In this document: in pieces, positions 22,744 through 58,321 of the stretch
Position numbering within the stretch: position 1 is the stretch's first letter
Layout: each line of letters begins with the position of its first letter
Virus record (IMG/VR): IMGVR_UViG_3300027859_000017
Location: 1 to 59,045 of that record
DNA from: a virus
Lineage: Duplodnaviria > Caudoviricetes
Strand: one strand, 5' to 3'
DNA: 59,045 nucleotides
Notes under the pieces: generated by a model
Seen by the model: only the letters and a program-made list of their open reading frames with translations
Database searches by the model: none
Told to the model about the DNA's origin: nothing
Position numbers and translations under genes: made by a program

Positions 22744-22780
22744 AAAAGAAGGGGTGTCTTTAAAGACACCTCCTCTTTTT
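22744..22780 (+). terminator. Intrinsic terminator whose stem is the 16-bp palindrome
   Basis: AAAAGAAGGGGTGTCTTTAAAGACACCTCCTCTTTTT after the capsid stop; palindrome copy at 22754-22769. Confidence 0.75.
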
Positions 22781-25956: not shown

Positions 25957-28900
25957 ATGGCCAACATACAAAGAAATTTTATTGCAGGACGAATGAATAA
26001 AGGCGTTGATGAACGCCTTGTCCCAAATGGAGAATACATAGATGCTTTAAATGTTAGGTTAGGTTCAACTGAAGAAACTGAAATAGGTTCAGTAGAGAAC
26101 TCAAAAGGAAACGAACAGCTTACGCAACTTCAATTTAATGGCACGGCATTAAGCAGTAATGCTAAGTGTATTGGAGCTTACGAAGATGGTGCTAATGAAA
26201 CGATATATTGGTTCATACATGATTCCTCATTTAGTGTGGGAGCTACAGGAAAATTAGATTTAATTGTTTCTTATAAAACAGATACAAGTACTCTTACCTA
26301 TCATGTAATAAGCATAGATGATGGTAATGGGGCTAATACTACTTTAAACTTTAACCCTTCATATTTAATGAATGGAATAAACTTAGTAGATGATTTATTA
26401 TTGTTTACGGATAATAATAACGCTCCTAGGTTTATTAATATTACAAGAAATTATACTAATCCATCTTCAAACATAGACCAGTTTAGCGCAGAAAGTTTAT
26501 TGGTTATAAAAAAACCACCAATTACTTCTCTAACAGTTCAAACTGTATCTACTAATTCCCAAGAGAATTTATTAGAAGATAAGTTTTTATCGTTTGCATA
26601 CAGATATAAATATGAAGACAATGAATATTCAGCTACTTCACAGTTTAGTGCTCCAGCTTTTATTCCTAAACCTTTTAATTTTACTACAGAATCTTATACA
26701 AATGATGGTTTTGAGAATTTAGTAAACCAAGCAAATATTACGTTTAATTCAGGTGGTCCTTTGGTAAAAGAGATAGAACTTTTATACAAAGACATGAATA
26801 GTAATATTATTAAGTCTATAGAAAAGTTAAATAAACTTGACCTTGGGTATGCAGATAATACAGATTATGTATATAATTTTGCATCAAATAAAATATTTAC
26901 TTTATTACCTGAAAGTGAAATACTCAGGCTTTATGACAATGTTCCTTTAAAAGCTAAAGCTCAAACCTTAATGGGTAATAGATTAATTTATGGAAACTAT
27001 ATAGAAGGATATGATTTAGTAGATGCTAATAATCAACCCGTAAAATTTGAATATGACACCAGTTTAGTTACGAATGAAATTGCAGAAGAAACTCTTACGG
27101 ATACAACCAGTAATGGAAGTTATAGTTATGATGGCTCAGTAACCGTTACTAATTCTATAGTAAGTTTTGATTTATCAGGATTAGAATTAGTGCAAGGAGC
27201 TTCATTAAATTTTACCATTAGATTTGAGCATTCTCAATTTACAGGAGGTGCAACTCCTACAGACCAAACTGGTTCCACTAGTATTGAGTTTAATTATATT
27301 TTACCACAAGCTTTTTCTTCAGTATATCAGCTGGCTAGCAGTGCAGATTTTCAAGAAAAAATTGGTACAGCATCTAACATACTTCCAGTATATCATGCTT
27401 CTAATCCAACTTCTTGTAGTGGAGAAACTTTTACAGATGAATTTAATTGTGCTATACCAGGTACATTAGATACTTATAACAAGTTTGATAGTGGTATTAC
27501 AGGAGGGGGACAACCTTTAAGTATTATTACTTCTACTTCAAGCGACAGCATTGGTATTCAACTCTTAGCCGTAAGGTTTGTAGATAATGTAACCACACCT
27601 ACAGTAAATGTTTACGAGTATTATCAAATTACATTTGCAGAAGGAGGGTATTCTAAAATAGCTAATTCAACCAGTTTACACAGTGATAGAGATTATGAAG
27701 TTGGTATTGTTTATATGGATGATTATAATAGAGCTACTACAGCTTTAGTAAGTGAAAATAATTCTATTCACGTTCCGTGTTCAAATTCAATTACACAAAA
27801 TATCGCAAGAGTAACTATTCCAAGTCAACAAATAGCACCATACTGGGCAACAAGATATAAGTTTGTTTTGAAGCCAGATAGAGAAGATTATGAAACAATT
27901 TATAGTAATATATTTTTCTACTCAACTCAAGAGAATGCTACATATTTTTTATTAGAAGGAGAAAATCAAAGTAAGGTTGAAATAGGAGATAGATATAAAG
28001 TAAAGTCAGATACTGAAGGACCTGTGCTTAGATGCACCTATACAACAGTGTTAGACAAAAAAGCATTAGACAGTACGTCTAAAGAATTTGACCCTGCGCC
28101 TACAGATAGTACGGGAAATGCTATTACAGTTCCTACAGGAACCTATATGAAAATAAGAGCTAATAATTTTACAGCTGAAAGAGATGATAATCAATCTTTG
28201 ACTTTATCAGATTCACAAACCCAAAAAAATGGTGATAGCTTTGTTATATTACAAAATCTGTTAACAAGAGAGTATAATAGTACTACTTCTCAATACGATG
28301 AAGTAACTATTCCAGCAGGTTCTATAATTGTAATTAATTTAGAGTTTGATAGACCGGGTAGAAATGGACCTTTTGCGTGTCCAGAAATAAACTATAAAAT
28401 TGATGATTTATCATTAGTAGCTTCACAAGACTATACGAGTTTTAAAGACTGGTTTGAAGGAGATAATGTAATTGCCTCTATTAATAATGCTGGAGTAGAA
28501 ACTTTAGAAACAACTTGTACGCCAGATGGTTTAGAAAGTATTTATGAACCAGCTGCTGCTACTTCTAACACAGATATTTCTACGGCTTTGTGTAACATGT
28601 ATTATAAATTTTACACACTTGGAGCAACAGATAAACAATTTTTACTAATATCAGGAACAAGGTCTTGTGAGGGCTCAAGAACATTTAGAAAAAACAGAGC
28701 TAGTATTACAGCTAGATTTGACATAACAAGAGCAACTCAGCTCTGTGTTTTTGAAACTAATCCGTCTTCAGAATCTTTAGATTTATGGTACGAGTCTTCT
28801 ACCTCTTATTCTATAAACGCTAATGGAAATCATTCTGGAAATGTACAGAATCAAAATATTAGCACAGGACAATCAGGTATTGTAGATACAGCTTTCTTTA

Positions 28901-30393
28901 ATTGTTATTCTTATGGAAACGGAGTTGAAAGTTATAAAATAAGAGATTCTTTAATTGGACAACCTTTAAAGATGGGTAACAGAGTTACAACTGTTTCTAA
29001 TGTAGATTATAAAGAAGCTCACAGATTTGCAGATTTAACATATAGTGGTGTATTTAATGATGAAACCAATTTAAACAAGCTCAATGAATTTAATTTAGGG
29101 TTATCTAATTTTAAACCACTTGAAGATACTTTTGGACAGATACAATTAATAGACGGTAGAGAAACAGATATACTAACTTTACAAGAAGATAAAATATCAT
29201 ATGTATTATCTGGTAAAAATTTACTTTCTGATGCAGCGGCTGGTGGAGCAATAACATCCATACCAGAAGTATTGGGTACTCAAATTGCAAGATTAGAAAA
29301 ATACGGCATAAGCTTTAATCCAGAAAGTTATGTAAAATGGGGTTATGATAAATACTTTACAGATTCTAAAAGAGGAGCTGTTATACAATTAAAAGGAGGC
29401 TCTTTTAAAAACGAACAACTAACAGTGATTTCAGAAAGAGGAATGAGGTCATGGTTTAGAGATTTGTTTATTGATTCTTTTGATACTCAAAAATTAGGGG
29501 GTTATGACCCTTATATGAATGAATTTGTTTTGAGTTCTAATCAAACTAAAATACCTGTTGTTAGCGAAGCTATAGGCTGTGGTATAACAAAAACATATTT
29601 AGTAAGAGCAGGAACAACTACAGAATTTAATGTAGATGTCGGGGCTTATGTAGGAGATTGTACGGTGGCTTATAATATTGTAAGTGTTGATGGAACAATT
29701 AATATTAGCAATGTTTACAATTCTACTACTACAACTTCAGGAAACGTAAATGTATCAGGGTCTTATACTTTTAATAAAAATTCAGTAAGTGAACAATTAT
29801 CTGAATTTGATGTAACGACTTCAACAGGAACAGCTACAGTAGAAATTACAGTAAGTTGTCCAGATGCAGACATTATAACAATATTCCAAGTTTGTGTTTC
29901 TAATAATAGTGATACAAACCAATTTATACACAACCAATATAGATGGGTTGACGGAACATTCGTTTCTCCATTACATAGCAATCAAATTGAGTTTGCTACA
30001 GGAACAAATAATCCTTTAGTGTCTCAATATGAATCGGTGGTGGGAGGTCAAGGAGCTGGTGTAATACCGGCAAATGGTGCAACCGTAAGTATTATATCTA
30101 ATAAAATAGCACCAACAGATGATTTTGTGTTTGATAATACAGTAGATAAGTTTAGATATTTAAGAACAAACACATTGTATAACAACACTGAAGCTGATAT
30201 AACTAGTTTAATTGCAGCTTCATCATTAGCAACTCCAATAACAGGGGGGCCTAATTCGTATCAGGCATCGTTTACTATGCCGAATACTAGTCAACAATAC
30301 TTATATTTGATATATGATTATAGAAATGGAACATCAGCAACACTATGCTACTCGACAGTAGATGAAACAGATGCGTGTTGTAATTGTCCTTAA
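25957..30393 (+). CDS. Tail stabilisation/nozzle-type protein (N-terminal and central part)
   Basis: MNKGVDERLVPNGEYIDALNV, FAYRYKYEDNEYS, GNRLIYGNY, GISFNPES, YFTDSKRGAV. Confidence 0.7.
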   Translation: MANIQRNFIAGRMNKGVDERLVPNGEYIDALNVRLGSTEETEIGSVENSKGNEQLTQLQFNGTALSSNAKCIGAYEDGANETIYWFIHDSSFSVGATGKLDLIVSYKTDTSTLTYHVISIDDGNGANTTLNFNPSYLMNGINLVDDLLLFTDNNNAPRFINITRNYTNPSSNIDQFSAESLLVIKKPPITSLTVQTVSTNSQENLLEDKFLSFAYRYKYEDNEYSATSQFSAPAFIPKPFNFTTESYTNDGFENLVNQANITFNSGGPLVKEIELLYKDMNSNIIKSIEKLNKLDLGYADNTDYVYNFASNKIFTLLPESEILRLYDNVPLKAKAQTLMGNRLIYGNYIEGYDLVDANNQPVKFEYDTSLVTNEIAEETLTDTTSNGSYSYDGSVTVTNSIVSFDLSGLELVQGASLNFTIRFEHSQFTGGATPTDQTGSTSIEFNYILPQAFSSVYQLASSADFQEKIGTASNILPVYHASNPTSCSGETFTDEFNCAIPGTLDTYNKFDSGITGGGQPLSIITSTSSDSIGIQLLAVRFVDNVTTPTVNVYEYYQITFAEGGYSKIANSTSLHSDRDYEVGIVYMDDYNRATTALVSENNSIHVPCSNSITQNIARVTIPSQQIAPYWATRYKFVLKPDREDYETIYSNIFFYSTQENATYFLLEGENQSKVEIGDRYKVKSDTEGPVLRCTYTTVLDKKALDSTSKEFDPAPTDSTGNAITVPTGTYMKIRANNFTAERDDNQSLTLSDSQTQKNGDSFVILQNLLTREYNSTTSQYDEVTIPAGSIIVINLEFDRPGRNGPFACPEINYKIDDLSLVASQDYTSFKDWFEGDNVIASINNAGVETLETTCTPDGLESIYEPAAATSNTDISTALCNMYYKFYTLGATDKQFLLISGTRSCEGSRTFRKNRASITARFDITRATQLCVFETNPSSESLDLWYESSTSYSINANGNHSGNVQNQNISTGQSGIVDTAFFNCYSYGNGVESYKIRDSLIGQPLKMGNRVTTVSNVDYKEAHRFADLTYSGVFNDETNLNKLNEFNLGLSNFKPLEDTFGQIQLIDGRETDILTLQEDKISYVLSGKNLLSDAAAGGAITSIPEVLGTQIARLEKYGISFNPESYVKWGYDKYFTDSKRGAVIQLKGGSFKNEQLTVISERGMRSWFRDLFIDSFDTQKLGGYDPYMNEFVLSSNQTKIPVVSEAIGCGITKTYLVRAGTTTEFNVDVGAYVGDCTVAYNIVSVDGTINISNVYNSTTTTSGNVNVSGSYTFNKNSVSEQLSEFDVTTSTGTATVEITVSCPDADIITIFQVCVSNNSDTNQFIHNQYRWVDGTFVSPLHSNQIEFATGTNNPLVSQYESVVGGQGAGVIPANGATVSIISNKIAPTDDFVFDNTVDKFRYLRTNTLYNNTEADITSLIAASSLATPITGGPNSYQASFTMPNTSQQYLYLIYDYRNGTSATLCYSTVDETDACCNCP

Positions 30394-35102: not shown

Positions 35103-38100
35103 ATGAACGAAGAGATATTAAAAAATATTTGGAATCAACTTACAGCTGATGGTCTAACAACCAGTGATTTTGAAACTTGGAAGAATAATTTTGCAGGTAG
35201 CGAAGAGATTCAACAAAATGTTCATACTTATTTGTTTAAAAATGGGATGACTAAAAATGATTTAGAAACTTGGTCCTCAAATGTAGGTTTAAAAAAAAAA
35301 GACAATACTCAACAGCAGCCTAAAAAAGAACTCATACCCCAAGAAGATTCTCCAAAACCTTTTGTTATGCCTGAAGTATTTGGTGAACCAATGCCTCAAG
35401 ATTATTTTATATATGGAGAAAAAACTCCAAGACAAGAAATAGATAACTTTATTGAAACAAGAGAGCCTACAGAACAACAAGAGGCTTACGAGTTTCAGCA
35501 GAACGTAGGAGCTGGAACAGGGCTAGGTATTAATGTAATGCAACAGCCTAAAGTTTTTAGCAAACCAGAGTTTAAAGTAAATGAAGATGTTTTATCAAAA
35601 ATAACTCTAGACCCTAATATTCAAAAAGCATTAGAGAAAAATTTAATAACTGAAGAGGATATAAAAAAAGCTTTTGTTGATGGTGATGAAGTTATGCTTA
35701 AAAAAATACAAAGCGTAACCAGAAGAACACCAAAGGAAATAAGAGACTCTTATACAAATAAAAGATTAAATGAAGTTTATACTTATGAAAAAAGCTCAGG
35801 ATTAGATGATAACTTAAATCAAGTCAAAATGAATCTTGATGAAATAAGTATAGATGAAATGTATGGTATTGAAAAACTCAAAAAAATTGATGGTCCTAAA
35901 GGAAAAATAAATATCAAAGATTTTGATGGGTATCTATCAGAACAAGGGTATAAAAAACAATTTAAAAAATATTTAGAGGATGAAACTATTTCACTTGATG
36001 GAAGAGAGTATGATATTTCAGGTAATTTTAATCCTTCGCTTGCAGCAGAAAGATTGCTGTTTACTTATTTAAACAATTATTTAAATAATCAAGTAGAAAG
36101 AAATGTGGACTTTCAAAAACTCCAATACCAAAAAGAAAATGACGGCAGTATGCCAAGTTTAGATGGTGTAGAATTAAGTTATTCATCAGGTGTAGATACT
36201 GAAAAAGTAAAAGAGTTTATACAAGAAAATTTCCCAAGATATGTTCAAAAATTAAAAGCACAAGATGCTAAAAATCAAGAACTATGGCAACAAAGAAAAA
36301 AAGATACAATATGGAATTGGGATGTAGCTGGGAATATATTTGTAGATGCTGCTACCCAAGGAGCTCGTGCATTTAACGATAGAATAGACACCTTATCAGA
36401 GGGGTTTTATAATTTTATAGGCATGGATGGAGCTGCTGATGAAATTAGAATGAACTCTGCTGAAACTAAACTTAATAGGCCTGATTTGATGCGATATGTT
36501 TTAGCTAACGGAAAAGAGGTGGAAGTAGATGGTGTTAAATATTTAGTAGATGATACAGGACAAGTATATTCTACAGCTCATAAACTTAGAGTAACTCACG
36601 TTTTAAGTCCAGGAGAGTATAAAGCTATTACACAAGCAGCTAAGCGTGAAGGTAAAGACACTTATTCATTTAGCGGAATCGGTTTAACTGTTGAAACAGT
36701 AGGTGTTATATCAGATATGTTATTACAGTTGGCAGTTCAAAGAAACGCATCAACTCTTTTAAAAGGTAGTGCTCTTATGGCTTCAAACATAGGGGGTGGT
36801 GTTAAAAAAACTGGAGACTTACTTGCAAGAATACCTATAAAAAGAGATATGTCTGGAATTATAATAGGTCAAGGAACTTTATTTTCCACTAATTTATATG
36901 CTGAGACAAAAACAAGAGCTTTAGAACAAGGATTGTCTGTAGAAAAAGCAGATGAAATTTCTGCCATGGCTGCAAAACAAGGATTTACGTTGGGTGCATT
37001 AACAGCCCCACTATCTCCACAAATGTATGCTATGAATAAAATATTCGGGAAAGAAGCTACAAAAAAAATAAGTAAAGAAATGTTGGATGCTTATGTTTCA
37101 AAAGGTCCACAAGGTTTTCAAGAAGTAGCTAAAAAATATTTAGGTAAAGTGTTGTTTTATAATAAACAAGGTTTAGCAGAAATGTTTCAAGAAAACGTAC
37201 AACAAGGAGGAGAAGCTTTTGTTGTTGCTCCTAATATTAATGAAGTAGCGGGAAAAGAAATAATAAGAGATACAATTTCACTTCAAGAATTTTTAAACAC
37301 TTCTATATTATCATACGCTGCTGGATTTATTATGCCTTTTGGTGGTGATGTTTTTAGTAAAGCTACAGGTAGAGGAGGTGGTGTAGATGGTACTGATAAG
37401 CTTCAGTTATTATCTATATTGGCTGAAGATGTAGATAAAACTACTGAATTATTAAACAGTCAAGTTGCTAAAGGTTTATATACGGAACAACAAGTAAACA
37501 AAATTCTATCTGACATTGAAGTATATAGAAATAGTATAAACAGCATACCTACCAATTTATCTTCACAAACGGGTCTTGAAGTTATGCAAGATTTAAATGA
37601 AATAAACAGACTTGAGCAAAAGAAAAAGAAACTAGATAAAGCTTTTCATGCAGAAATAGATAATGAAATAGAGGGTATAAGAGAAAATATTAGAAAAAAA
37701 GTAGATGCTGATAAACAAGTTGACTCCGAAGTCGAGCCAGAGGTAGAACAAACCCCGCAAGCTATTACTGATGAACAAGTAATAAAAAGAATTACAACTG
37801 AAAAAGATAGTGATGTTTATACTCAAGAAGAGTTTGATAACATGAAAAAGAAAATGGAGCAAGAGCAAGCTGAATCAGATGTAGATACAGAAGTAACTGA
37901 GGAGGCTGAAACTAAAATATTTGAAGAAGGAGAAACAGATATTGAATTTACTAGGACATCTCAACAAGGTGATATTTTTACATACCAACAGGTTGTAACC
38001 GATGAAACAGTGGAGGGTGATGAACAAACTACAGGTGTAAAAAAAGTAGAATATGTAGGGGAAAAGAATAATTCTGGTAGGAAAATAAAAAAAGCCACGG

Positions 38101-41100
38101 TTCCTGTTGGAGAAACTGAATTTAGTGATAGAGAACAAGAGCTTAGAGAACAACTCATAGAAGATGGACTTATTGATGAAGATGTAGATGTAGACTTAGA
38201 TATACAAGAAGCTCGAATAATTCCCGAAACGACAAAAGCTGCTGGTTCTGGAACAATTTCTTTTAAGGTTAGGGTAAGACCAAAAGGCAAATCTGGTTTT
38301 GGAGCTCCAACATTTGTACTACAACTACCTATAAAATCTGGAGGTGTAGAGCCAGAAGTTCAACAACCTAAAGTAGTTAATGAAAGTAATGTGGTTATGC
38401 AGGCTTTAAATGAAGCTGAAAATAAAATAACTAAAAGAGCACAAGGAAGAAAAGCTTTACAAGATGCAAAAAAAGCTGTTATAAAATTCTTAAAAGAATC
38501 TTTACCAGCAGATGTATACAGCAAGCCAGAGGTTTTAAAGATAACCAGAAAAGTACAAAGAGCTACTGAAAATAATATTGATAAAATATTTAAAGAAATA
38601 CAACAAGTAGTAAACCAAAAGGTAAATGTAAAATTAGAAAAACAAATCAATAATATTCTTACAGACAAGTATCAAAAAACAGAGGCTGGTAGAGTCAAAG
38701 CTAAAGGTGTTGACAATGAAATGAGAAAAAGAATTGCAAGCATAAATTCTAACCGTTTGAAAGCAGGGGCTACTGCTCAAGATATTGAATCTACTAATGC
38801 TGAATTATTAAATAGATTTAATGAGCTAGATAAAATTACTGCAAAAACAGATTCTCAGTTTAATGAAATGGTTGATTTACAAATATTAATTAACCTTAAT
38901 AATTCTTTATTGATGAACAACAACGACATCAATAAAACAAAAGCATTGTCAAATGCAGCAACACCTCTTGAGCAAATGATAGAAGAAGGAAGGTCTGAAT
39001 TAAAAGAAGAGCTTATTCAGTCTTCAAAAAAATATGCTAGAAATGATGGTATTGCTTATAGAGAAATAACAGGGTTGCAAAAAGATTTTTCTGACCCAGA
39101 AACAAAAAAAGAATTAGAGCTTCAAGATGTAAAAGATTTAAATGCAAAAAGAAATCAAACACAAAATGTTATTAAAAAATTCTTTACTACAATTAATACT
39201 AAAATCAAAGCTTTTTTTAATCAAGCAGAAGCGTTAGATGGATTGATGGATTTGATTTCAAAAACTCCTGGTGATATGTTTGGAGGTATACTACAAGAAA
39301 TGGTTACAGGCAGAGTAGATGAATCTACTATTATATACAAAGAAAGAACTATTCAGAATGAGTTAACTCTTGCTAAATTTTTTGAAAAATTGTATGGTAA
39401 AAAATGGAGAAACGAAGTTAGAAAAAACAATAATTTACCTAAAGATGCCACATATATTATAGATGAAAAAGCTTACAACCAAGCATATAAAGATTACGAA
39501 TCTAACCCAACAAAGGAAAACAAAGCAAAGCTAGATAAAGCAAAGCAAGAAAATTTAGTTTACCTTTCTCAAAACCAAATGATTTATTTATATAATCTTG
39601 CTAAGGACCCAGCAAATAACGCATCGTTTGAGAACACCTTTGGTCCAGATTATAAAAATTTATTAAACGACATAGAAAGTAAATTAGACCCCAAAGCAAA
39701 ACAATTTGCTGATTGGTTAGTTAATGATTTTTATCCGTCATTGTACAATCACTATAACAAAACATACAAGGCTTTGTATAGAACGGATATGCCGTACAAT
39801 GAATTTTATTCTGGTATGATATATAGGGAGGACATAAAGCGTGAGCCAATAGATATGTTAGGAAGTCCTTTTTCAATAAATAACTCTGTAGGAGCAAGCT
39901 CTACAAAAGCTAGAACAGATACTAATGCTAAGATTAAAGTTATGAATGCTGTAGATGTTATGGCTACTTATTTGAGAGACATGGAATACTTTGCTGCGTA
40001 TGGAGAAACAATTAGAGATATTAATAAAATGTTTTCTAATCCAGCAATTAAAAACGCAATAACTAAAATCCACGGTGATTATGTTAATAAGCTTATTGAT
40101 AACATGATTACAAAAATTGCAAACAAAGGTGTAAGAGGAGATACAGAAAGTGAAATTATAAATACTTTCAATAACTTTTTCTTAGTGTCAAGAATTGGTT
40201 TGAACCCAACCATTACTTTAAAACAGCTTACCTCTATGATAGTTTATGCGAATGATATAGGTATAGCAAATTGGTTGAAGCATGGTTTAACAAACATTCC
40301 TAAGATAAGAAAAACCATGAAAGAAATTAGTGACAACTCTACTTATATGGGAGATAGAAACAGAATATCTATAAATAGAATTATTGAGGCTTATTCTGAT
40401 AAAGAAATGGTCAAGTTTGTAGGCGGTAGGCACTATGATAATTTTGTAAACTTTGTGATGTACCCTACTAAATTTGGTGATAGAGCGGCAATTTTCTTAG
40501 GAGGAATGCCTAACTATATATATTACAAAAAGCAAGCGTTAAAAGAAGGAAAAACAGAAAAAGAAGCTATTAAGATTGCAATTAAGAAATTTGAAAGAGA
40601 CACTAAAAGAACTCAGCAATCTCAAGACTTGCAAGACAAAGACTATTACCAAACAGGTTCTGCGTGGATGAGAGCTGTTAACATGTTCTTAACTACGCCA
40701 AAACAATATTTAAGAAAAGAAATTCAAGGAACCAGAAACTTATACAGAAAAGCAAAAGCTTGGGATAAGAAAGCGGGTAAAGGTAGTTTGTTTGAAAACC
40801 TAAGAACTTTAGCAACCTATCATGTATTTGCTCCTGTTTTATTTCAATATGTAGCACTAGGTCTTCCAGGAATACTCAGAGGGTTTAGAGATGATGATGA
40901 TGAAGATTTATTAAGAGCAGCTATACTTGGAAATATTAATGCGTTATTTATTGTAGGAGACCTTATAAATGCTACTGCTGATTTAGTTCAAGACAAACCA
41001 TATGCAGGAAAATCTTTTAGAAACATTGCTCCTTTAATGACAGCAGAAAGAGTCTTTGACCTAGCAACAAGATGGGAAAAAACAACAGACCCAATTAAAA

Positions 41101-41366
41101 AACAAGAAGCGTTAGAAAGATTAATCGCTGAAATAATATCTATTCCTGGTATCCCCGCTATACAATTACAAAAGTTTGTTAAGAATATAGAAAACTTAGG
41201 TAAAGACGGAGATGTTGGTAAAGATATTTTAAGATTATTAAACTACTCTGAATATCAGATTGAAGGACCAGACCAAGATGCTCCTAAGAAAAGAAAACCT
41301 ATGACTAAAAAAGAATTAAAACAGTATGCACCTGGAGTGTATGAAAGAATTTACGGAAAAAAATAG
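35103..41366 (+). CDS. Large probable internal virion (ejection) protein
   Basis: 2087 aa, helical, last large late gene; no RNA polymerase catalytic motif seen. Confidence 0.6.
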   Translation: MNEEILKNIWNQLTADGLTTSDFETWKNNFAGSEEIQQNVHTYLFKNGMTKNDLETWSSNVGLKKKDNTQQQPKKELIPQEDSPKPFVMPEVFGEPMPQDYFIYGEKTPRQEIDNFIETREPTEQQEAYEFQQNVGAGTGLGINVMQQPKVFSKPEFKVNEDVLSKITLDPNIQKALEKNLITEEDIKKAFVDGDEVMLKKIQSVTRRTPKEIRDSYTNKRLNEVYTYEKSSGLDDNLNQVKMNLDEISIDEMYGIEKLKKIDGPKGKINIKDFDGYLSEQGYKKQFKKYLEDETISLDGREYDISGNFNPSLAAERLLFTYLNNYLNNQVERNVDFQKLQYQKENDGSMPSLDGVELSYSSGVDTEKVKEFIQENFPRYVQKLKAQDAKNQELWQQRKKDTIWNWDVAGNIFVDAATQGARAFNDRIDTLSEGFYNFIGMDGAADEIRMNSAETKLNRPDLMRYVLANGKEVEVDGVKYLVDDTGQVYSTAHKLRVTHVLSPGEYKAITQAAKREGKDTYSFSGIGLTVETVGVISDMLLQLAVQRNASTLLKGSALMASNIGGGVKKTGDLLARIPIKRDMSGIIIGQGTLFSTNLYAETKTRALEQGLSVEKADEISAMAAKQGFTLGALTAPLSPQMYAMNKIFGKEATKKISKEMLDAYVSKGPQGFQEVAKKYLGKVLFYNKQGLAEMFQENVQQGGEAFVVAPNINEVAGKEIIRDTISLQEFLNTSILSYAAGFIMPFGGDVFSKATGRGGGVDGTDKLQLLSILAEDVDKTTELLNSQVAKGLYTEQQVNKILSDIEVYRNSINSIPTNLSSQTGLEVMQDLNEINRLEQKKKKLDKAFHAEIDNEIEGIRENIRKKVDADKQVDSEVEPEVEQTPQAITDEQVIKRITTEKDSDVYTQEEFDNMKKKMEQEQAESDVDTEVTEEAETKIFEEGETDIEFTRTSQQGDIFTYQQVVTDETVEGDEQTTGVKKVEYVGEKNNSGRKIKKATVPVGETEFSDREQELREQLIEDGLIDEDVDVDLDIQEARIIPETTKAAGSGTISFKVRVRPKGKSGFGAPTFVLQLPIKSGGVEPEVQQPKVVNESNVVMQALNEAENKITKRAQGRKALQDAKKAVIKFLKESLPADVYSKPEVLKITRKVQRATENNIDKIFKEIQQVVNQKVNVKLEKQINNILTDKYQKTEAGRVKAKGVDNEMRKRIASINSNRLKAGATAQDIESTNAELLNRFNELDKITAKTDSQFNEMVDLQILINLNNSLLMNNNDINKTKALSNAATPLEQMIEEGRSELKEELIQSSKKYARNDGIAYREITGLQKDFSDPETKKELELQDVKDLNAKRNQTQNVIKKFFTTINTKIKAFFNQAEALDGLMDLISKTPGDMFGGILQEMVTGRVDESTIIYKERTIQNELTLAKFFEKLYGKKWRNEVRKNNNLPKDATYIIDEKAYNQAYKDYESNPTKENKAKLDKAKQENLVYLSQNQMIYLYNLAKDPANNASFENTFGPDYKNLLNDIESKLDPKAKQFADWLVNDFYPSLYNHYNKTYKALYRTDMPYNEFYSGMIYREDIKREPIDMLGSPFSINNSVGASSTKARTDTNAKIKVMNAVDVMATYLRDMEYFAAYGETIRDINKMFSNPAIKNAITKIHGDYVNKLIDNMITKIANKGVRGDTESEIINTFNNFFLVSRIGLNPTITLKQLTSMIVYANDIGIANWLKHGLTNIPKIRKTMKEISDNSTYMGDRNRISINRIIEAYSDKEMVKFVGGRHYDNFVNFVMYPTKFGDRAAIFLGGMPNYIYYKKQALKEGKTEKEAIKIAIKKFERDTKRTQQSQDLQDKDYYQTGSAWMRAVNMFLTTPKQYLRKEIQGTRNLYRKAKAWDKKAGKGSLFENLRTLATYHVFAPVLFQYVALGLPGILRGFRDDDDEDLLRAAILGNINALFIVGDLINATADLVQDKPYAGKSFRNIAPLMTAERVFDLATRWEKTTDPIKKQEALERLIAEIISIPGIPAIQLQKFVKNIENLGKDGDVGKDILRLLNYSEYQIEGPDQDAPKKRKPMTKKELKQYAPGVYERIYGKK

Positions 41367-52371: not shown

Positions 52372-52537
52372 TTAACCTTTTCTTTATCGTTTTCTACATA
52401 TTCGGGAAAACAAAACCAATACTTTGGCTCTTTTTTGAAAAAATTTCTGATGATATATCCTATTGCTTTCATAGTGTTATGTTTGGTTTATACCAATGTA
52501 CGACAATATTTAGACAATTCCAAATTTAGTTGTGGGT

Positions 52538-52807
52538 TTAGAAAATATTTCCATCTGCGTACCCGCTTGCTTCGGCATCTATAATCGGGTGCACTCTGTT
52601 TATGTAGTCCCTATATTTTTTATACCACTCGAGCTGTTGATTTCCATTTCTTAATCGTGGTGCAAAACCTGTTTTCTTATGCTTGTATATCAGGTTACCT
52701 TCCCAGTTTATTATATGATAGTCATTCCCCTCTACTTTATCGTGGGTTCTTTTTGCTTCTGTATCAAATAATTGTTCTACTAATTTTTTTAATTTATTTT
52801 TTTCCAT
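52538..52807 (-). CDS. Hypothetical protein
   Basis: 89-aa ORF in early operon. Confidence 0.65.
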   Translation of the reverse strand: MEKNKLKKLVEQLFDTEAKRTHDKVEGNDYHIINWEGNLIYKHKKTGFAPRLRNGNQQLEWYKKYRDYINRVHPIIDAEASGYADGNIF

Positions 52808-52808
52808 A

Positions 52809-52994
52809 TTACATTCTTAATTTTATTTGTTCATAAACTTTATTAGAAATATTTTCGTATTCCTCAGCTTCTAACTCATGACCAAAATCTTCAAATATTC
52901 TGGGCATTATCATTTGCTCTGACATATAATCTATTATGCCATCAGCAAGTTCTATTATTTTTTCTCTTTGTTTCATTTTAGATTTATTTTTCAT
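52809..52994 (-). CDS. Hypothetical protein
   Basis: 61-aa ORF in early operon. Confidence 0.6.
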   Translation of the reverse strand: MKNKSKMKQREKIIELADGIIDYMSEQMIMPRIFEDFGHELEAEEYENISNKVYEQIKLRM

Positions 52995-52999
52995 AATTT

Positions 53000-54124
53000 T
53001 TAATATTTAAATGTTTTGTGATACTTCTCTCCTTTTGATTGTTCTGTTATGTTAAAGTAAATCCAACACTTTTTTGCACCTCCATTCAAAAGTATGTTTA
53101 TTTCTTTTCGTCTGTACCATGTCGGGTGGTTTTCCAAAGCGTCTAAACTTTCTAAGGTTGGCATATCTACATTGAACACATCTACTTCTACATTGTGCCC
53201 TTTGCCTTTCTCATTCAAAAGAAATGGCAACCCCTTAACAATTAAGGGGTACCTGTCTTGAGTCGTTCCGCTACCGACAAACTCTTGGTCTTGCAAAAAA
53301 TTTCGGTGGTTTCCAAACCCTCTTTTCAAAGTTCCATACACTGCAACAAGTTCTTTGTTGCCCTCGTACTTCGGTGTATCAAATTGTGTAAAATCCATTA
53401 CTTGTTCCTTAGAAAAACTTTTATCACAACTTACACAATAGTATTTGTTCTCGGACAACTCGCTTGCATCATACATCAAATCGTTGGTGCACTGAACACA
53501 GACATTGCTTTCATTTTTCCAATCAAACTCGTCTTCAAATTCATTATGGTTTTCAAAAACAAATTCACTTGGGGCACTGGTACCAACTCCTACATTACCC
53601 GCCCACCTCGAAATATAACTCGGTGTCTTGTAGGTTGTGAACACATTGTCTTTAGAGTACCAAACTTTATCTTTGTGTGTCCAAAGGTGCTTGTTGTATA
53701 TTTGGAAAGTTCTGTTTCTTGTGTTAATGGTTGCAAACCTAACCAAAGAATACTGAGCAAGTTTTTGTTTCCAAATATGTCTTTCAATCTTACCCAACTT
53801 AATGGCTAAATCTTGAGTGTCGGTCATGTTCTTGTTTCCCAACTCGCTAATAGTTCCGTTCATCATGAGCAGTTCGTTGTGCTTCTTACCACATTTAAAT
53901 GGGTGCGTGTTTTCTTTACATATTTTTCCAATCGTTGCGTATCTAAAATGAGCAATGAAGGGTCTTGTTGTATTTAGTTTTTTGTAATCTTTAGATTCAT
54001 GATAAGATACTTTGAAAGTATCCAACCATACTATCCCCAATCCATGAGGATTTTTCCTCGCTGAATTTTTCAGGACTTGTTGCGAAATCTTGTTTCGCTT
54101 TTGTTTTATTATTATTATACACAT
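53000..54124 (-). CDS. Class II glutamine amidotransferase + Zn ribbon + gamma-glutamylcyclotransferase fusion
   Basis: N-terminal MC, NPHGLG, AHFRYAT, NTHPF, MNG, TDT; CVQC/CVSC; VAVYGTLKRG..NH, LDALE..P.WYRR. Confidence 0.85.
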   Translation of the reverse strand: MCIIIIKQKRNKISQQVLKNSARKNPHGLGIVWLDTFKVSYHESKDYKKLNTTRPFIAHFRYATIGKICKENTHPFKCGKKHNELLMMNGTISELGNKNMTDTQDLAIKLGKIERHIWKQKLAQYSLVRFATINTRNRTFQIYNKHLWTHKDKVWYSKDNVFTTYKTPSYISRWAGNVGVGTSAPSEFVFENHNEFEDEFDWKNESNVCVQCTNDLMYDASELSENKYYCVSCDKSFSKEQVMDFTQFDTPKYEGNKELVAVYGTLKRGFGNHRNFLQDQEFVGSGTTQDRYPLIVKGLPFLLNEKGKGHNVEVDVFNVDMPTLESLDALENHPTWYRRKEINILLNGGAKKCWIYFNITEQSKGEKYHKTFKY

Positions 54125-54146
54125 TTGTTTTAAGTATTTAAGTGGG

Positions 54147-54162
54147 GTGTCTTTGAAGACAC
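54147..54162. repeat. Palindrome variant GTGTCTTTGAAGACAC in 5' leader
   Basis: One central mismatch; between promoter 54189-54220 and ATG 54124. Confidence 0.85.
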
Positions 54163-54188
54163 TACCCTAAGGTTAAACATAATTTAAA

Positions 54189-54220
54189 CAAAGGTACGAC
54201 ATTCTATCGACATATACAAA
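54189..54220 (-). promoter_or_regulatory. Consensus Bacteroidota sigma promoter
   Basis: TTTG-N20-TACCTTTG on - strand. Confidence 0.85.
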
Positions 54221-54234
54221 TACCTCTGTTGCTT

Positions 54235-54292
54235 GATAATGAGGGCGGAAACTAATCCACCCTTTCGAGTACACAACTCTCATCAGATTATC
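54235..54292 (-). ncRNA. Type I hammerhead ribozyme (downstream of phosphatase)
   Basis: GAUAAU CUGAUGA GAGU-UGUGU-ACUC GAAA GGGUGGA-UUAGUU-UCCGCCC UC/AUUAUC; full core, three stems, CUC cleavage site at 54241/54240. Confidence 0.9.
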
Positions 54293-54314
54293 TATTGCGA
54301 AATATTCTTTCGCA

Positions 54315-54836
54315 TTAAAAGTTTCCTTCTGCAACTTGAAAACATTTTAATCCCCTGCTTCGCCACATCTTAACGACTTTATCCCTGTCATCAAAGACGC
54401 ACACAATTCTGTGCATAGCAAAACTTGGGTCGTCCCATTCATCAGTAATTTCTTGCTCTTGCTCTATGAGTGCGTCCAACCATTCCTCTTTTAAAACATC
54501 ATCGGGTTTCATCAACTGGCTTGTGGGTCTCATCTTTATGTCGTCATAATATATGTTGTACTTCTCCAACCACTGCTCAGTGGCTTCTTGCGTTCCCGCT
54601 GAACGACCGCTAAATATTATTATTCGGTAATCTTTCCACAAGTGCTTCGCAATTTCTACCACTGCATGATTTGGCCTGTCAAGTTTGATATTGTTCGGGT
54701 CATAGAATTTGTCCCAATCAATCTTGCCATCTGGCTTACTGGATACTTCCCTTCTTTTGCTTATATCGGCAAGTGTTCCATCTAAGTCAAATATTATTAC
54801 TTTATTGTGTTTTCTATTTAAGTGTTTTAGATTCAT
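54315..54836 (-). CDS. HAD-family polynucleotide 3'-phosphatase (T4 Pnkp C-terminal domain-like)
   Basis: IFDLDGTLA, FSGR, MRP...KPDDVLKEE, FDDRDKVVKMWRSRGLKCFQVAEGNF closely parallels the T4 Pnkp C-terminus; no kinase domain. Confidence 0.88.
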   Translation of the reverse strand: MNLKHLNRKHNKVIIFDLDGTLADISKRREVSSKPDGKIDWDKFYDPNNIKLDRPNHAVVEIAKHLWKDYRIIIFSGRSAGTQEATEQWLEKYNIYYDDIKMRPTSQLMKPDDVLKEEWLDALIEQEQEITDEWDDPSFAMHRIVCVFDDRDKVVKMWRSRGLKCFQVAEGNF

Positions 54837-54852
54837 AATTATTATTTTAATT

Positions 54853-54920
54853 GTTACTTACAAAGGGGGTTTTTAATCCCCTCTGTTTCGCCACCTTTCT
54901 GTGTTGCTCGTCAGAGTAAC
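54853..54920 (-). ncRNA. Type I hammerhead ribozyme (upstream of phosphatase)
   Basis: GUUACU CUGACGA GC-AACACAGAAAGGUG-GC GAAA CAGAGGGG-loop-CCCCUUUG UA/AGUAAC; GUA cleavage site at 54859/54858. Confidence 0.88.
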
Positions 54921-54923
54921 TAA

Positions 54924-55073
54924 TTAAACTAAATATTCGGCGACTTTCTTTTCGGCCTGTTCTCTTGTTAGACCAAATTTATCCATGAGGTTTTTAACTC
55001 TGATTAACCTCCTGTTTTCTCTCCTCGCTTTTGCGTGGTGTAAAATGTTATTTTCTATTCTGTGTCTATTCAT
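54924..55073 (-). CDS. Small basic protein (49 aa)
   Basis: MNRHRIENNILHHAKARRENRRLIRVKNLMDKFGLTREQAEKKVAEYLV; stop lies 3 nt before the hammerhead. Confidence 0.6.
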   Translation of the reverse strand: MNRHRIENNILHHAKARRENRRLIRVKNLMDKFGLTREQAEKKVAEYLV

Positions 55074-55083
55074 AATATTTATT

Positions 55084-55326
55084 TTATATTAATTCATTTA
55101 TGTATTCAAAAGTTCTTTGTAAAGATTTTAGGTCTTTTTCTACCCAGTAATTTACATCTTTTAAATGGGTAAATTTTACCCAATCAAGAGCGTGGAGTAA
55201 CTCAAGTTTCTTTTTTATCTTATTTCTTTCTATATCTATATAGGTTAGGTTTGCAAATAACTTAATTATCTCTTTATTCTTTTTTTGATAATTGGTTTTG
55301 GCTTCTTGTATATTAGTATTTTTCAT
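55084..55326 (-). CDS. Hypothetical protein
   Basis: 80-aa ORF. Confidence 0.6.
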   Translation of the reverse strand: MKNTNIQEAKTNYQKKNKEIIKLFANLTYIDIERNKIKKKLELLHALDWVKFTHLKDVNYWVEKDLKSLQRTFEYINELI

Positions 55327-55720
55327 GATATTTTTTTAAATTTTTGTAAAATATTTTATTAATTAATTCTTCTGTTATATTGGGGTAGTCTTTCAACTTC
55401 TCGATACAATCAATAGTGTCCCCAGTGTAGTAACATTCATGGTTTGAAAGTTCTCGTTTGATAATTGTTTCAATTCCATTCTCTGCGATATCTTGTTTTA
55501 TCGCATTAGTATAAATCTTGTTAAGTTCTTTTAAAACTTTTTTCGCTTGATTTCTTGGGCAATACATACCCTGTCCAAGTCCAACGATTTGGTCTTGCTT
55601 TGTTAGAAAGTGTTTTCTCATGCCTTCAGCAAATTGTTCATTGTCGAATGCAAAGAAAACTTTTCTTTGTTTGAATAGGTTTGTTTGTGCTTGTTCTGTG
55701 TAATCGTTTAAGTATTTCAT
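55313..55720 (-). CDS. Phage hypothetical protein
   Basis: VFFAFDNEQFAEG...RELSNHECYYTGD pattern. Confidence 0.7.
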   Translation of the reverse strand: MKYLNDYTEQAQTNLFKQRKVFFAFDNEQFAEGMRKHFLTKQDQIVGLGQGMYCPRNQAKKVLKELNKIYTNAIKQDIAENGIETIIKRELSNHECYYTGDTIDCIEKLKDYPNITEELINKIFYKNLKKYHEKY

Positions 55721-55732
55721 AATAATAATAGT

Positions 55733-55876
55733 TTAAAAATTAATTGTTACACCATTAAAAATGGTTTGATATAGTATAAAAAGAATGCCTGTAAAACTCA
55801 TTAACATTAGCTTATAAATAAACAATGCTAAAACTGGATTTGTGTCATTCCAAATTGATTTGATTAAGTATTTCAT
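55733..55876 (-). CDS. Small membrane peptide (47 aa)
   Basis: MKYLIKSIWNDTNPVLALFIYKLMLMSFTGILFILYQTIFNGVTINF. Confidence 0.5.
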   Translation of the reverse strand: MKYLIKSIWNDTNPVLALFIYKLMLMSFTGILFILYQTIFNGVTINF

Positions 55877-55897
55877 ATAATTGTTTTTAAAAGTTAG

Positions 55898-55942
55898 AGA
55901 GCGGGAGGGGACTCGAACCCCTCTAAATTTCCAAACCGCTCT
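55898..55942 (-). ncRNA. tRNA-like mini-element (acceptor stem + T arm only)
   Basis: AGAGCGG-UUUGGAAAUUUA-GAGGGG-UUCGAGU-CCCCUC-CCGCUCU. Confidence 0.65.
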
Positions 55943-55946
55943 GAGA

Positions 55947-55962
55947 GTGTCTTTAAAGACAC
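55947..55962. repeat. 16-bp palindrome after amidoligase stop
   Basis: Exact copy, extends to 20 bp GAGTGTCTTTAAAGACACTC. Confidence 0.9.
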
Positions 55963-55965
55963 TCC

Positions 55966-57039
55966 TTAGGGCATAAATACACTAACTTCAGACCCTCTTA
56001 CCAAATCAACCCATTCATCAACTAATACATCGTAGTTCCTTTTCAGGTCTGTGTCAAACCATACCAAATGGGCTTGATGAAAAAGGTCTCTCGCTGGTCT
56101 AAAAGCCCCCCTATTGGTTACCTCGCTTTTAATCCATTTCCAACCCTCTACATAAGGAATTACATACCTGTTGAATTTACTGGTCAAAATCATCCTTCTA
56201 AAATGCCCCGCCAGTGTTCCCAACCAGTCCACCTTTTCAGCGTTCCCCTCGTACATGCTCATCAGTACAGGTCTAATAATCTTAAGGAATTTTTTATGCG
56301 TTCCATTCGGATTATTAATTGAAAAGTCTAAAAGATGATAACAAAGTTCATATCTCCTCATCATCTGCTTGACGCTCTGTACTCTGCTCGGGAGTCGCAA
56401 CTCAATAGCGTGGTCCATGATTTTTACTGGGCAGTATTTATCATGCCTACCCCCTAAAAAATCATTTAAATTACTATTGTAGTCACTGGGTTTTATTGAT
56501 AGGTTTCTATTGCAGTAGCTATTCGTTAACCTCTTTCTGAAAATTGCGTAAAAGATACCAAAGTTTTTTCTGATTTTCTCAGCAACTTCATAACCGCTTA
56601 ACCCATGAACGCTCAAAGTAATATGCCCCCCGCAACTTCTATCGGATGGGCTAAACTCATCAGAGATAATTTTCTTTGCTTCAACAAACATATTGAAAAC
56701 TTTCGTTCTCCAAAGTGATTTCGGCAACAGAGGAAGTACATGAGTAACCGCTTCAACTCCGCAAGAGGAATCAGTTTCAAACCCTTTAAAAAGCGGGTAC
56801 TCTATAACTGCCCCCCTGTGAAATCTTATTTTTTCAATTTCGAAACCGATATTAAATTTGCTTTCGATTTCATTCGGGTCATCCGCATATCTTTCAACAA
56901 CATTCGTTGTTCTTATCCCTCGTAAATCAACCTTTTTCGCTTTGTTGATAAACTCGGGGTCGGGGCTTCCATGATACCCCCTGACTCTACCTCTGTCAGC
57001 ATCGCCAGTAATTTCAAATTTTACTCCTGTATCAATCAT
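55966..57039 (-). CDS. Putative amidoligase (COOH-NH2 ligase, Amidoligase_2-like)
   Basis: IGFEIE, TDSSCGVEAVT, SCGGHITLS, KY, IELRL. Confidence 0.75.
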   Translation of the reverse strand: MIDTGVKFEITGDADRGRVRGYHGSPDPEFINKAKKVDLRGIRTTNVVERYADDPNEIESKFNIGFEIEKIRFHRGAVIEYPLFKGFETDSSCGVEAVTHVLPLLPKSLWRTKVFNMFVEAKKIISDEFSPSDRSCGGHITLSVHGLSGYEVAEKIRKNFGIFYAIFRKRLTNSYCNRNLSIKPSDYNSNLNDFLGGRHDKYCPVKIMDHAIELRLPSRVQSVKQMMRRYELCYHLLDFSINNPNGTHKKFLKIIRPVLMSMYEGNAEKVDWLGTLAGHFRRMILTSKFNRYVIPYVEGWKWIKSEVTNRGAFRPARDLFHQAHLVWFDTDLKRNYDVLVDEWVDLVRGSEVSVFMP

Positions 57040-57635
57040 AGCTCTGAGATTTTTAAATTAATTAAATTCATTGCTTCGGTTAAGCACTCCACATCATTTA
57101 AGGTTTTAACCTCATCAGGAAAAATTTCAAATTTTATATGAGAAAATTGACCAGTTCCTTTCAGGGTTAAAATTGCCTTTGGTCTTTCGATTACTTGAGC
57201 ATTCCCTTCTGTTAATTCCGCCTTTGCGAATTTGTGCAAACTTTCAAGACTTCTTGAGGTGCTTTCGCCGTTGTTCTCTGCCTGTGTGCATTCTCTTTTG
57301 AATTTCGTTACAACTTGCGGATTTTCCTCGAGTAATTTACCCGCTTTTACCATTTTGAAAAAATATGATTTTTTCCACCCAAAAACTCTTTCAGCAAATA
57401 TTTCAACATTTACCCAGTCCACACCCTCAGTGTCCATCAGACTTTTTGCTTCATCTGATTTATACCAGTCATTGGCCTTGTTTACGATTTTAGCAAGTTT
57501 TAAAGATTTTTCAAACTTACTTTTTTTCGCATCTCCTATCTGTTGAGATAGGTTTTGAATTGTGTTAATCGGAACATGATTTCTTACCCCAGTATGAGAT
57601 AAAAACTCTTGTTCAATTTGGTTTAGATTATTCAT
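57036..57635 (-). CDS. Hypothetical protein, first gene of the early arm
   Basis: 199 aa; FGWKKSYFFKMVK may be HTH-like. Confidence 0.7.
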   Translation of the reverse strand: MNNLNQIEQEFLSHTGVRNHVPINTIQNLSQQIGDAKKSKFEKSLKLAKIVNKANDWYKSDEAKSLMDTEGVDWVNVEIFAERVFGWKKSYFFKMVKAGKLLEENPQVVTKFKRECTQAENNGESTSRSLESLHKFAKAELTEGNAQVIERPKAILTLKGTGQFSHIKFEIFPDEVKTLNDVECLTEAMNLINLKISEL

Positions 57636-57675
57636 GATTTTTAATATTTAGTTTAATTATTTTTTAATTATTGTT

Positions 57676-57707
57676 TAAATATAGTTCATTTCAGATAAGT
57701 AGACAAG
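57676..57707 (-). promoter_or_regulatory. Candidate early promoter
   Basis: CTTG-N20-TATATTTA on - strand upstream of ATG 57635. Confidence 0.5.
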
Positions 57708-57852
57708 TGTTTTTTATATTTTTATTTAGATTTTAGTTAAATAGTTGATTCTCTACCTGTTAAATAGGGTCTAATTATTGTAAAATATTAGAGTAATTTT
57801 CCTGGAGCGGGTTATTACCTTTCTTTTCCTGTTGTGAGGGAAAGGTTAAAAG

Positions 57853-57868
57853 GTGTCTTTAAAGACAC
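57853..57868. repeat. 16-bp palindrome in divergent non-coding region
   Basis: Exact copy. Confidence 0.9.
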
Positions 57869-58108
57869 TTTAAAGGGGGAAAAATGGAATATAAAAGAGA
57901 ATAGGGCCGACACAATAAGCAAAACAATTGTATTTGACAGAGGTAGGATAAAAAGCTAAAAAATTTGGCCAACCCGAGACAAAACAGACCCCCACCCCCA
58001 AAAAAAAAAGTCATTTTATTTTTTTTAGATTTGTGCGTGTGGCGATATATAACCTCCAGCCTCTATATATCTAAAATAAATTTGTATCTTTACATAAAAG
58101 AATCAGTT

Positions 58109-58321
58109 ATGCATTACAAGGATATGAAACCTTCAGAGTTAGGATACAGAGTTCAAGATGGGAGATTAATTAATGATGCTCCAGAATTAGTTTCTGGAAT
58201 TTCAAAAGCTGCAATCATGAGAAAAGAAATGAAGAGCAGAACATTAACTCAAGACATCGCACTAGGTATCGAGCTAGCTGAAGATAGAAAAAACATTAAA
58301 AATATCATCAAAGGTATTTAA
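58109..58321 (+). CDS. Hypothetical protein (70 aa)
   Basis: Start reassigned to ATG 58109 (MHYKDM...), preceded by TAAATTTG/TATCTTTA boxes, followed by terminator. Confidence 0.65.
   Translation: MHYKDMKPSELGYRVQDGRLINDAPELVSGISKAAIMRKEMKSRTLTQDIALGIELAEDRKNIKNIIKGI

Follow-up and report, generated by a model that had tools for sequence, protein, structure and literature searches.

The DNA under study is the virus record IMGVR_UViG_3300027859_000017 of IMG/VR (Duplodnaviria; Caudoviricetes), which was analysed over its whole length and is referred to here as the window (59,045 bp, 97% complete, 32.6% G+C). On its minus strand a gene for a stand-alone phosphatase is bracketed by two motifs of the type I hammerhead ribozyme, named HH1 (before the gene) and HH2 (after it). 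The features of this locus, with lengths in nucleotides (nt), base pairs (bp) or amino acids (aa), are the following:

54853..54920, minus strand: HH1, type I hammerhead (sequence, scanner, fold and covariance model R2)
54845..54928, minus strand: HH1 plus a predicted extension of stem I (88-nt fold, -23.0 kcal/mol, z -3.45)
54315..54836, minus strand: HAD_PNKP phosphatase gene, 173 aa, stop codon included (PF25109 match)
54235..54292, minus strand: HH2, type I hammerhead (sequence, scanner and model R2)

Both motifs have the type I topology, with stem I open and stems II and III closed by loops, and in both the consensus core (C3 U4 G5 A6 N7 G8 A9 / G12 A13 A14 / A15.1-U16.1 / H17) is found without substitution, which is the criterion applied to hammerheads in Perreault et al. 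2011 (PMC3088659). HH1 begins 3 nt past the stop codon of a 49-aa open reading frame (ORF) and ends 16 nt before the phosphatase ATG. Its stem I (GUUACU/AGUAAC, 6 bp) is accompanied by the core CUGACGA and GAAA, stem II consists of GC, an AA bulge and CAC/GUG, and stem III (9–11 bp) is followed by GUA. The predicted cut is placed at 54859|54858 (GUA|A) and leaves a leader of 22 nt ahead of the ATG at 54836. HH2 lies 22 nt past the phosphatase stop codon, and a gap of 110 nt that contains a palindrome separates it from the next ATG. It is built from stem I GAUAAU/AUUAUC (6 bp), the core CUGAUGA and GAAA, a stem II of 4 bp and a stem III of 8 bp, the predicted cut being at 54241|54240 (CUC|A). 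The helix lengths returned by the scanner for stems I/II/III are 6/4/8 bp for HH2 and 6/5/11 bp, with one interruption, for HH1. A repeat comparison of the two motifs revealed no shared repeat. The RNA between both predicted cuts (54858-54241) measures 618 nt.

In HH1 the 6 bp of stem I are continued, past one bulged A, by 7 more A-U-rich pairs that overlap part of the phosphatase mRNA leader. None of 200 shuffled sequences was as stable as this 88-nt fold, and the hammerhead is also the minimum-energy structure of HH1 taken with 10-nt flanks. All 13 core positions are intact in HH1, in HH2 and in their counterparts in L001 and L002, two relatives (93–94% protein identity) that retain both motifs and in which the differences are placed at N7, H17, loop III and one G-U pair changed to A-U. 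A first-pass annotation of this DNA, made without database searches, had described two complete type I hammerheads on the sense strand; sequence, scan and model R2 (see below) confirm them, and the two cuts, the 22-nt leader and the 618-nt product that it gave match in position, as predicted from sequence.

The gene between the hammerheads was correctly recognized at that stage as a phosphatase with the motifs of the T4 Pnkp domain. The PF25109 profile matches residues 12–173 with 100 bits (cut-off 27.6, E 1.7e-28), and the PHROG assignment is 505/415 'polynucleotide kinase'. The DxDxT motif is found at residues 17–21, SGR at 76–78, the lysine at K110 and the aspartate pair at 149–150. The protein aligns end to end with the phosphatase domain of T4 Pnkp and with Capnocytophaga Pnkp1, with DxDxT, Ser, Lys and Asp-Asp retained; D17, D19, S76 and D149/D150 match T4 catalytic positions, and K110 is aligned in 4xrp and shifted in the 5uj0 alignment. 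Catalytic roles of T4 Asp165, Asp167, Ser211, Lys258 and Asp278, as well as the clearing of RNA 2',3'-cyclic phosphates by this domain, are described in PMC3592404. The window protein thus resembles the T4 Pnkp/PseT phosphatase domain (PDB 1LTQ, 5UJ0) in family (HAD/DxDxT, PF25109), in whole-domain alignment and in the motifs kept. Unlike T4 Pnkp, it has no kinase domain in its 173-aa ORF, and no ligase was found in the genome. Its 77 homologues in other, environmental phages (42–56% identity) are likewise all stand-alone ORFs of at most 200 aa. Around these homologues (loci L003-L079) same-strand tRNA genes are found within 2 kb in 10 of 34 clusters (80% identity), a tRNA-Gln often lying some 270–290 nt upstream of the phosphatase gene, and this neighbourhood fits an RNA-end substrate.

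More distant relatives of the window were located through two neighbouring genes used as anchors, and the lineage set comprises 38 records in all:

55966..57039, minus strand: 357-aa gene, no family match; the gene most often hammerhead-followed or -bracketed in relatives
53000..54124, minus strand: gene with a C-terminal GGACT domain, 374 aa, downstream of the phosphatase locus

The two genes are syntenic throughout the lineage. The 374-aa protein shows a weak class II amidotransferase-like region at its N terminus (it starts Met-Cys) and a gamma-glutamyl cyclotransferase domain at its C terminus.

A structure-aware scan of both strands of the window returned HH1 and HH2 as the sole sites; among 300 dinucleotide shuffles no match was equally strong, weak ones averaging 0.05 (strict) or 0.23 (relaxed) per window. 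Taken without its stems, the core pattern does not exceed chance significantly (29 matches against 12.8 expected, 10 of 100 shuffles reaching 29). A seed model was built from 4 type I sequences of two relatives and used to gather 17 type I sequences, from relatives only; the covariance model R2 was rebuilt from those 17, the window and its two near-identical contigs being excluded. Searched against the window at E<=10, R2 gave exactly two matches, HH2 (49.6 bits, E 3.2e-13) and HH1 (31.2 bits, E 3.4e-7).

The pairing in these stems is maintained by compensatory changes. In the 17 type I sequences of the relatives 99.2% of cells are paired versus 64.3% after shuffling, in an alignment that was fitted to the model and favours pairing; both sides have changed in 13 of 16 pairs, and sliding the partner by 1–3 columns lowers pairing to 38% or less. 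In a core-anchored table that includes HH1 and HH2, 16–18 of the 18 members are paired at every position, with 2–6 pair types per position except at the two core-adjacent pairs (1–2). The full type I MAFFT alignments (A2, A4, A5) were excluded from the structure counts because stem III was misaligned in them, and the 4-sequence seed (A6) and the model alignment were used instead. Stem I of all 18 type I members, window pair included, is exactly 6 bp long and closed by A..AA, HH1 adding its bulged extension, and no covarying contact of stem I with loop II was established in this set. For type III, a gapless MAFFT alignment of 20 sequences is 100% paired versus 78% shuffled, with compensatory changes in 11 of 15 pairs. 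On this comparison of sequences HH1 and HH2 are genuine type I hammerheads under selection, and the selection argued for in the first-pass annotation is supported by the conservation and covariation seen in the relatives.

A closer inspection of the 38 records revealed that hammerheads are spread over the lineage. The type III model, built from the 20 gapless sequences, has 75 matches in 34 records (two weak ones overlap type I sites), and the type I model has 24 matches in 15. Combined, 97 distinct matches leave at least one hammerhead in 37 of the 38 records, the sole exception being a record that is 48% complete; the window and its two close relatives alone have type I without type III. The 18 whole records contain 13 type I and 19 type III matches versus 1.9 and 1.8 per shuffle round, and their convincing sites are all intergenic, on the gene strand and in the early block. 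The scanner found 60 sense and 0 antisense matches at the loci of the relatives, which overlap, two weak type II matches being included. Type II matches of the scanner are at chance (5 versus 3.7 per shuffle round) and were left out of every tally save this strand count. Where loci appeared empty by the scanner, a search for other ribozyme classes gave only tRNAs and one sub-threshold type III, and the model later found type III hammerheads in most such records.

The genes flanked by these hammerheads are of many kinds. Maps of the 20 of 41 loci with matches place the ribozymes between many different small ORFs. The 357-aa gene has a hammerhead after it in 20 of 33 contigs and before it in 6 of 32, being bracketed on both sides in four records (G014, G016, G019 and G036); the corresponding values for the GGACT gene are 5 of 31 and 3 of 31, and a 199-aa gene is followed by one in 5 of 32. 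Ribozymes with the HH1 stem I precede four different genes: the phosphatase (window and L002), a 48-aa ORF (L001), a 67-aa ORF (L101) and a DUF7659 gene (L130). The position relative to the genes is, by comparison, regular. Type I hammerheads start between -6 and +3 nt of the upstream stop codon in 12 of 15 cases and end 14–27 nt before the next ATG in 12 of 15, and type III hammerheads end 18–27 nt before the next ATG in 25 of 33. HH1, with 3 and 16 nt, matches this family spacing, and HH2 does not. At least two hammerheads on the gene strand, flanking a gene or short block whose identity varies, is the arrangement described by Perreault et al. 2011, and it is the arrangement found in this lineage.

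The phosphatase gene is not coupled to the hammerheads in its distribution. Of 37 related records, PF25109 matched in the two that are near-identical to the window and in none of the 35 more distant members. In the opposite direction, the 77 homologue loci of other phages gave no significant match to the type I or type III model; on these loci the generic scanner returned weak matches in coding regions only, and Rfam at gathering score, run on 40 of the 77, reported only tRNAs. In the near-identical relative L001, the leader that follows HH1 and precedes the phosphatase gene has a 160-nt insertion with an extra 48-aa ORF (2842-2988), so that the bracketed unit is not always monocistronic: the single-gene 618-nt unit described before stands for the window and fails for the bracket of L001. 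The C-terminal half of the 48-aa ORF resembles that of the upstream 49-aa ORF (FGL..REA motif). A functional tie between ribozymes and phosphatase, the central proposal of the first-pass annotation, is not supported, given the high frequency of hammerheads flanking unrelated genes in relatives, the gene in 0 of 35 members and the hammerhead at 0 of 77 loci; hammerheads around unrelated genes in relatives are the very outcome named there in advance as speaking against it. Since hammerheads surround unrelated genes and the phosphatase is absent in relatives, the locus points to ordinary phage transcript processing and not to a dedicated loop, and the link to the phosphatase is best taken as cargo and position coinciding by chance.

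The closest public relative of the window, with a primase identity of 73%, is the uncultured freshwater-spring podovirus MW202828.1, which has no hammerhead within the 12.8-kb region scanned. The closest cultured relatives are Flavobacterium phages (39% identity), for which reason a host among the Bacteroidota is likely. The early block extends from about 57.6 kb down to 41.5 kb, with every gene on the minus strand and tightly packed, and its products include a primase-helicase, an SNF2-type helicase, a PD-(D/E)XK nuclease-like protein and numerous small ORFs. The terminator scan called no minus-strand terminator-like site within 52.5–58.3 kb (52500-58300).

We consider it probable that HH1 and HH2 belong, as ordinary members, to the set of intergenic sense-strand hammerheads found across the lineage, which would cut a polycistronic early transcript into gene-length mRNAs. 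In this scenario the leftward early block would be transcribed as a long polycistronic RNA that the hammerheads would sever where genes adjoin. A type I element would then stay attached to the upstream mRNA, forming a stable 3'-terminal hairpin with a 2',3'-cyclic phosphate at its end, and the downstream mRNA would carry a 5'-OH followed by a short leader rich in A (about 20–33 nt), so that neighbouring genes would be uncoupled both in mRNA stability and in the start of translation. That the distance to the start codon is fixed suggests that the definition of the leader matters. The phosphatase gene would be a cargo gene, interchangeable like many others in the hypervariable region that separates the 357-aa and GGACT genes, and both hammerheads of the window would flank it because junction ribozymes sit there in this lineage.

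Several further elements surround the locus:

55898..55942, minus strand: tRNA-like minihelix, with a 7-bp acceptor-like stem and a T-arm reading GGGGUUCGAGUCCCC
54924..55073, minus strand: upstream 49-aa ORF, no assigned function (ORF call)
54347..54368, minus strand: phosphatase coding stretch repeating the inner part of HH1 (54873-54896; direct-repeat search)
54297..54313, minus strand: 6-bp hairpin between the phosphatase stop codon and HH2 (read from the sequence)
54147..54162, no strand: 16-bp palindrome GTGTCTTnAAAGACAC, one of six copies (repeat count)

Cleavage by HH1 would leave the body of the ribozyme attached to the mRNA of the 49-aa ORF, as its 3' end. The minihelix occupies the junction after the 357-aa gene, which is the hammerhead position in 20 of 33 relatives. 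Its acceptor stem shows a compensatory G-C to U-A change in close relatives, and it also appears in L088 (~3270-3327) and L098 (~6130-6190), in the latter as a similar element after the GGACT gene. It weakly matches the Rfam model of mascRNA (17.9 bits, E 0.23), an RNA processed by RNase P, and it may represent an RNase P cut site in place of a ribozyme. ARAGORN found no tRNA in the window, and a simple minihelix regular expression gave nothing useful, missing the window's own element because its T stem has 6 bp. The palindrome GTGTCTTnAAAGACAC is present at 22754, 43952, 51608, 54147, 55947 and 57853, six copies versus 0.13 expected. Three of them adjoin RNA-processing sites. Several relatives use this sequence as stem III of a type I hammerhead lying upstream of the GGACT gene, and the palindrome could be bound by a regulator or act as an RNA hairpin. 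The direct repeat shared by HH1 and the 3' end of the phosphatase gene (22–24 nt, with 2 substitutions and a 2-nt indel) is also seen in G001 (17259-17282 and 17947-17968). It is the only other match of the inner HH1 stretch in the genome within 4 edits, and 2 of 200 shuffled ORFs gave a comparable match. The repeat may be the scar of a recombination that brought the phosphatase gene in.

A number of observations weigh against reading HH1 and HH2 as ordinary processing ribozymes. Co-transcription of the block, cleavage in vivo and the effects on stability and translation are steps that we infer from gene and motif arrangement. A sigma-70 promoter scan gave matches at chance level, with a model that is unsuited to Bacteroidota hosts. 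The Rfam hammerhead models did not bear out the earlier claim, as neither site was reported at gathering score in the window, neither was matched at E<=10 on 54100-55050, and RF00163 and RF00008 run singly on the whole genome gave no hammerhead match. The Rfam type I model has 45 positions, and HH1 and HH2 stay below the RF00163 gathering threshold; among 13 loci searched, the gathering score of RF00008 was reached by a single type III of the relatives. Because Rfam also misses most of these plainly canonical type III hammerheads, its miss was not counted as a refutation. The minimum-energy fold of HH2, alone or flanked, differs from the hammerhead fold, and its distance of 110 nt from the next ATG is unlike that of most family members. 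Stem II of HH1 is irregular, and HH1 scores lowest among the 24 type I model matches. The direct repeat suggests that HH1 and the phosphatase gene may share some history. Finally, given the tRNA genes beside its homologues in 10 of 34 clusters, the protein may well act on RNA ends, perhaps with a side role on those made by the ribozymes.

An unlikely alternative is that the hammerheads delimit exchangeable gene cassettes, either with their conserved cores and short leaders as recombination points or with pairs of them making excised or circular RNAs, the arrangement acting chiefly in gene shuffling and not in mRNA processing. The highly variable gene content between conserved junction ribozymes, the HH1-type ribozyme ahead of four different genes, the 160-nt ORF insertion of L001 placed exactly in the leader behind HH1 and the direct repeat at the 3' end of the phosphatase gene are consistent with such borders. 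Circular or spliced products are raised as a possibility in PMC3088659, where they were sought and none was detected. The strict sense orientation (60 versus 0) and the fixed start-codon distance, however, point to a role at the level of RNA, the stems covary in a way that preserves pairing, which recombination sites do not need, and no repeat relationship links HH1 to HH2.

It is improbable, in our estimation, that the stand-alone phosphatase, newly gained in this sub-lineage, acts on the hammerhead-made 2',3'-cyclic phosphates of early mRNAs, its own message included, thereby altering their decay or blocking their rejoining by a host ligase. More broadly, phage stand-alone phosphatases of the PNKP type might settle in the neighbourhood of RNA-processing elements, as with the tRNA genes of 10 of 34 clusters elsewhere and the hammerheads and the minihelix here.

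The feedback circuit put forward in the first-pass annotation, in which the hammerheads release a monocistronic phosphatase mRNA whose cyclic-phosphate 3' end is healed by the encoded enzyme, with consequences for stability or circularisation, is very doubtful. The only two hammerheads of the window do flank the phosphatase gene, the catalytic motifs are kept from a T4 domain that removes RNA 2',3'-cyclic phosphates (PMC3592404), the homologues often adjoin tRNA genes, hinting at an RNA substrate, and HH1 and the gene share a direct repeat. Against these stand the missing gene in the 35 more distant hammerhead-bearing members, the missing hammerheads at the 77 homologue loci and the second ORF within the bracket of L001. 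Moreover, profile searches of the window genome gave no AAA_33, RtcB or RNA ligase match, and the N-terminal P-loop 5'-kinase and partner RNA ligase of a bifunctional Pnkp are not found there; a PF09511 search gave no match either, but its positive control also gave none and it is uninformative. RtcB is present in 0 of 37 relatives and 2H ligase-type enzymes in 0 of 38 lineage records, so that no sealing partner appears to be encoded. A 3'-phosphatase acting alone would leave 3'-OH and 5'-OH ends, which are not known to be joined by any ligase, and this also weighs against the circuit. Least probable of all is that one of the motifs, or both, is an inactive remnant or resembles a hammerhead by chance, HH1 stem III being for instance the terminator hairpin of the upstream ORF: the G/C hairpin of that stem followed by UUUGU, the irregular stem II, the lack of an Rfam match and the minimum-energy fold of HH2 would agree with this, and they are outweighed by 13 of 13 core positions intact in both motifs and in L001 and L002 with substitutions at free positions only, by 0 of 300 shuffles equally strong and relatives-only model values of E 3e-13 and 3e-7, and by the terminator scan, which does not call the HH1 hairpin on the minus strand.

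Hammerhead insulators of the RiboJ type are placed in synthetic biology before the ribosome-binding site, so that the downstream mRNA gets a defined 5'-OH end regardless of the upstream sequence. The lineage hammerheads resemble them in lying just upstream of the start codon and differ in being natural, in belonging to both type I and type III and in having a host that probably lacks Shine-Dalgarno pairing. The insulator idea is made testable here, with ribozymes as natural candidates for defining mRNA ends in hosts of this kind.

Clusters of prophage hammerheads flanking single genes or short blocks of varying identity are described in Perreault et al. 2011 (PMC3088659), together with the proposal that they cut long phage transcripts to gene length. 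The lineage shares with those prophages the mixed hammerhead types lying close together on one strand around such genes. It differs in being an uncultured phage lineage of about 60 kb, probably of Bacteroidota, with 97 distinct matches in 38 records, in the fixed start-codon distance of 14–27 nt, in the 6-bp stem I of every type I member and in the phosphatase cargo of one sub-lineage. The first-pass annotation knew of no description of the arrangement, but several hammerheads around single prophage genes or short blocks are already in print in that source. Retrozymes and viroid-like RNAs (PMC4918200 and PMC7229834) are comparable in that two same-strand hammerheads would release a unit with a 5'-OH and a 2',3'-cyclic phosphate that a host ligase could circularise; unlike them, HH1 and HH2 are not direct repeats, the unit is protein-coding and lies in the operon of a DNA phage, and no ligase is encoded. 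Literature searches on a link between hammerheads and Pnkp, and on phage hammerheads more widely, returned no description of such a link, and the gene lists or Figure 3 of PMC3088659 may show similar cargo.

The purpose of hammerheads in bacteria and phages is a standing question, and their role in transcript processing is still regarded as unproven in reviews (PMC6765202, PMC6155905). The lineage offers a clean natural data set in this respect, with 97 matches in 38 genomes whose convincing sites, where checked, lie on the gene strand of one early block at a fixed distance before the start codon, and in which type I, type III and possibly a tRNA-like element substitute for each other at a shared junction. 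The value of the arrangement lies in the size and regularity of this set and in the apparent swapping of these elements at one junction, and not in the phosphatase link, for which the value of the analysis is mainly corrective.

Some minor observations complete the description. A mini-ORF of nine codons (ATG...TAA, 54190-54219, minus strand) begins about 21 nt after HH2, at the usual start-codon distance of the family, and is possibly the remnant of a lost gene. In L108 a tRNA match (6403-6511; Rfam tRNA, 44 bits) has a 51-nt insertion in the anticodon region and could represent an intron-bearing or otherwise interrupted phage tRNA. Elsewhere in the window a GroEL-type chaperonin is encoded by the phage on the plus strand (13-1416; Cpn60_TCP1, E 7e-48), and a plus-strand block contains three very long ORFs at 4516-11793, 25957-30393 and 35103-41366 (2425, 1478 and 2087 aa, respectively).

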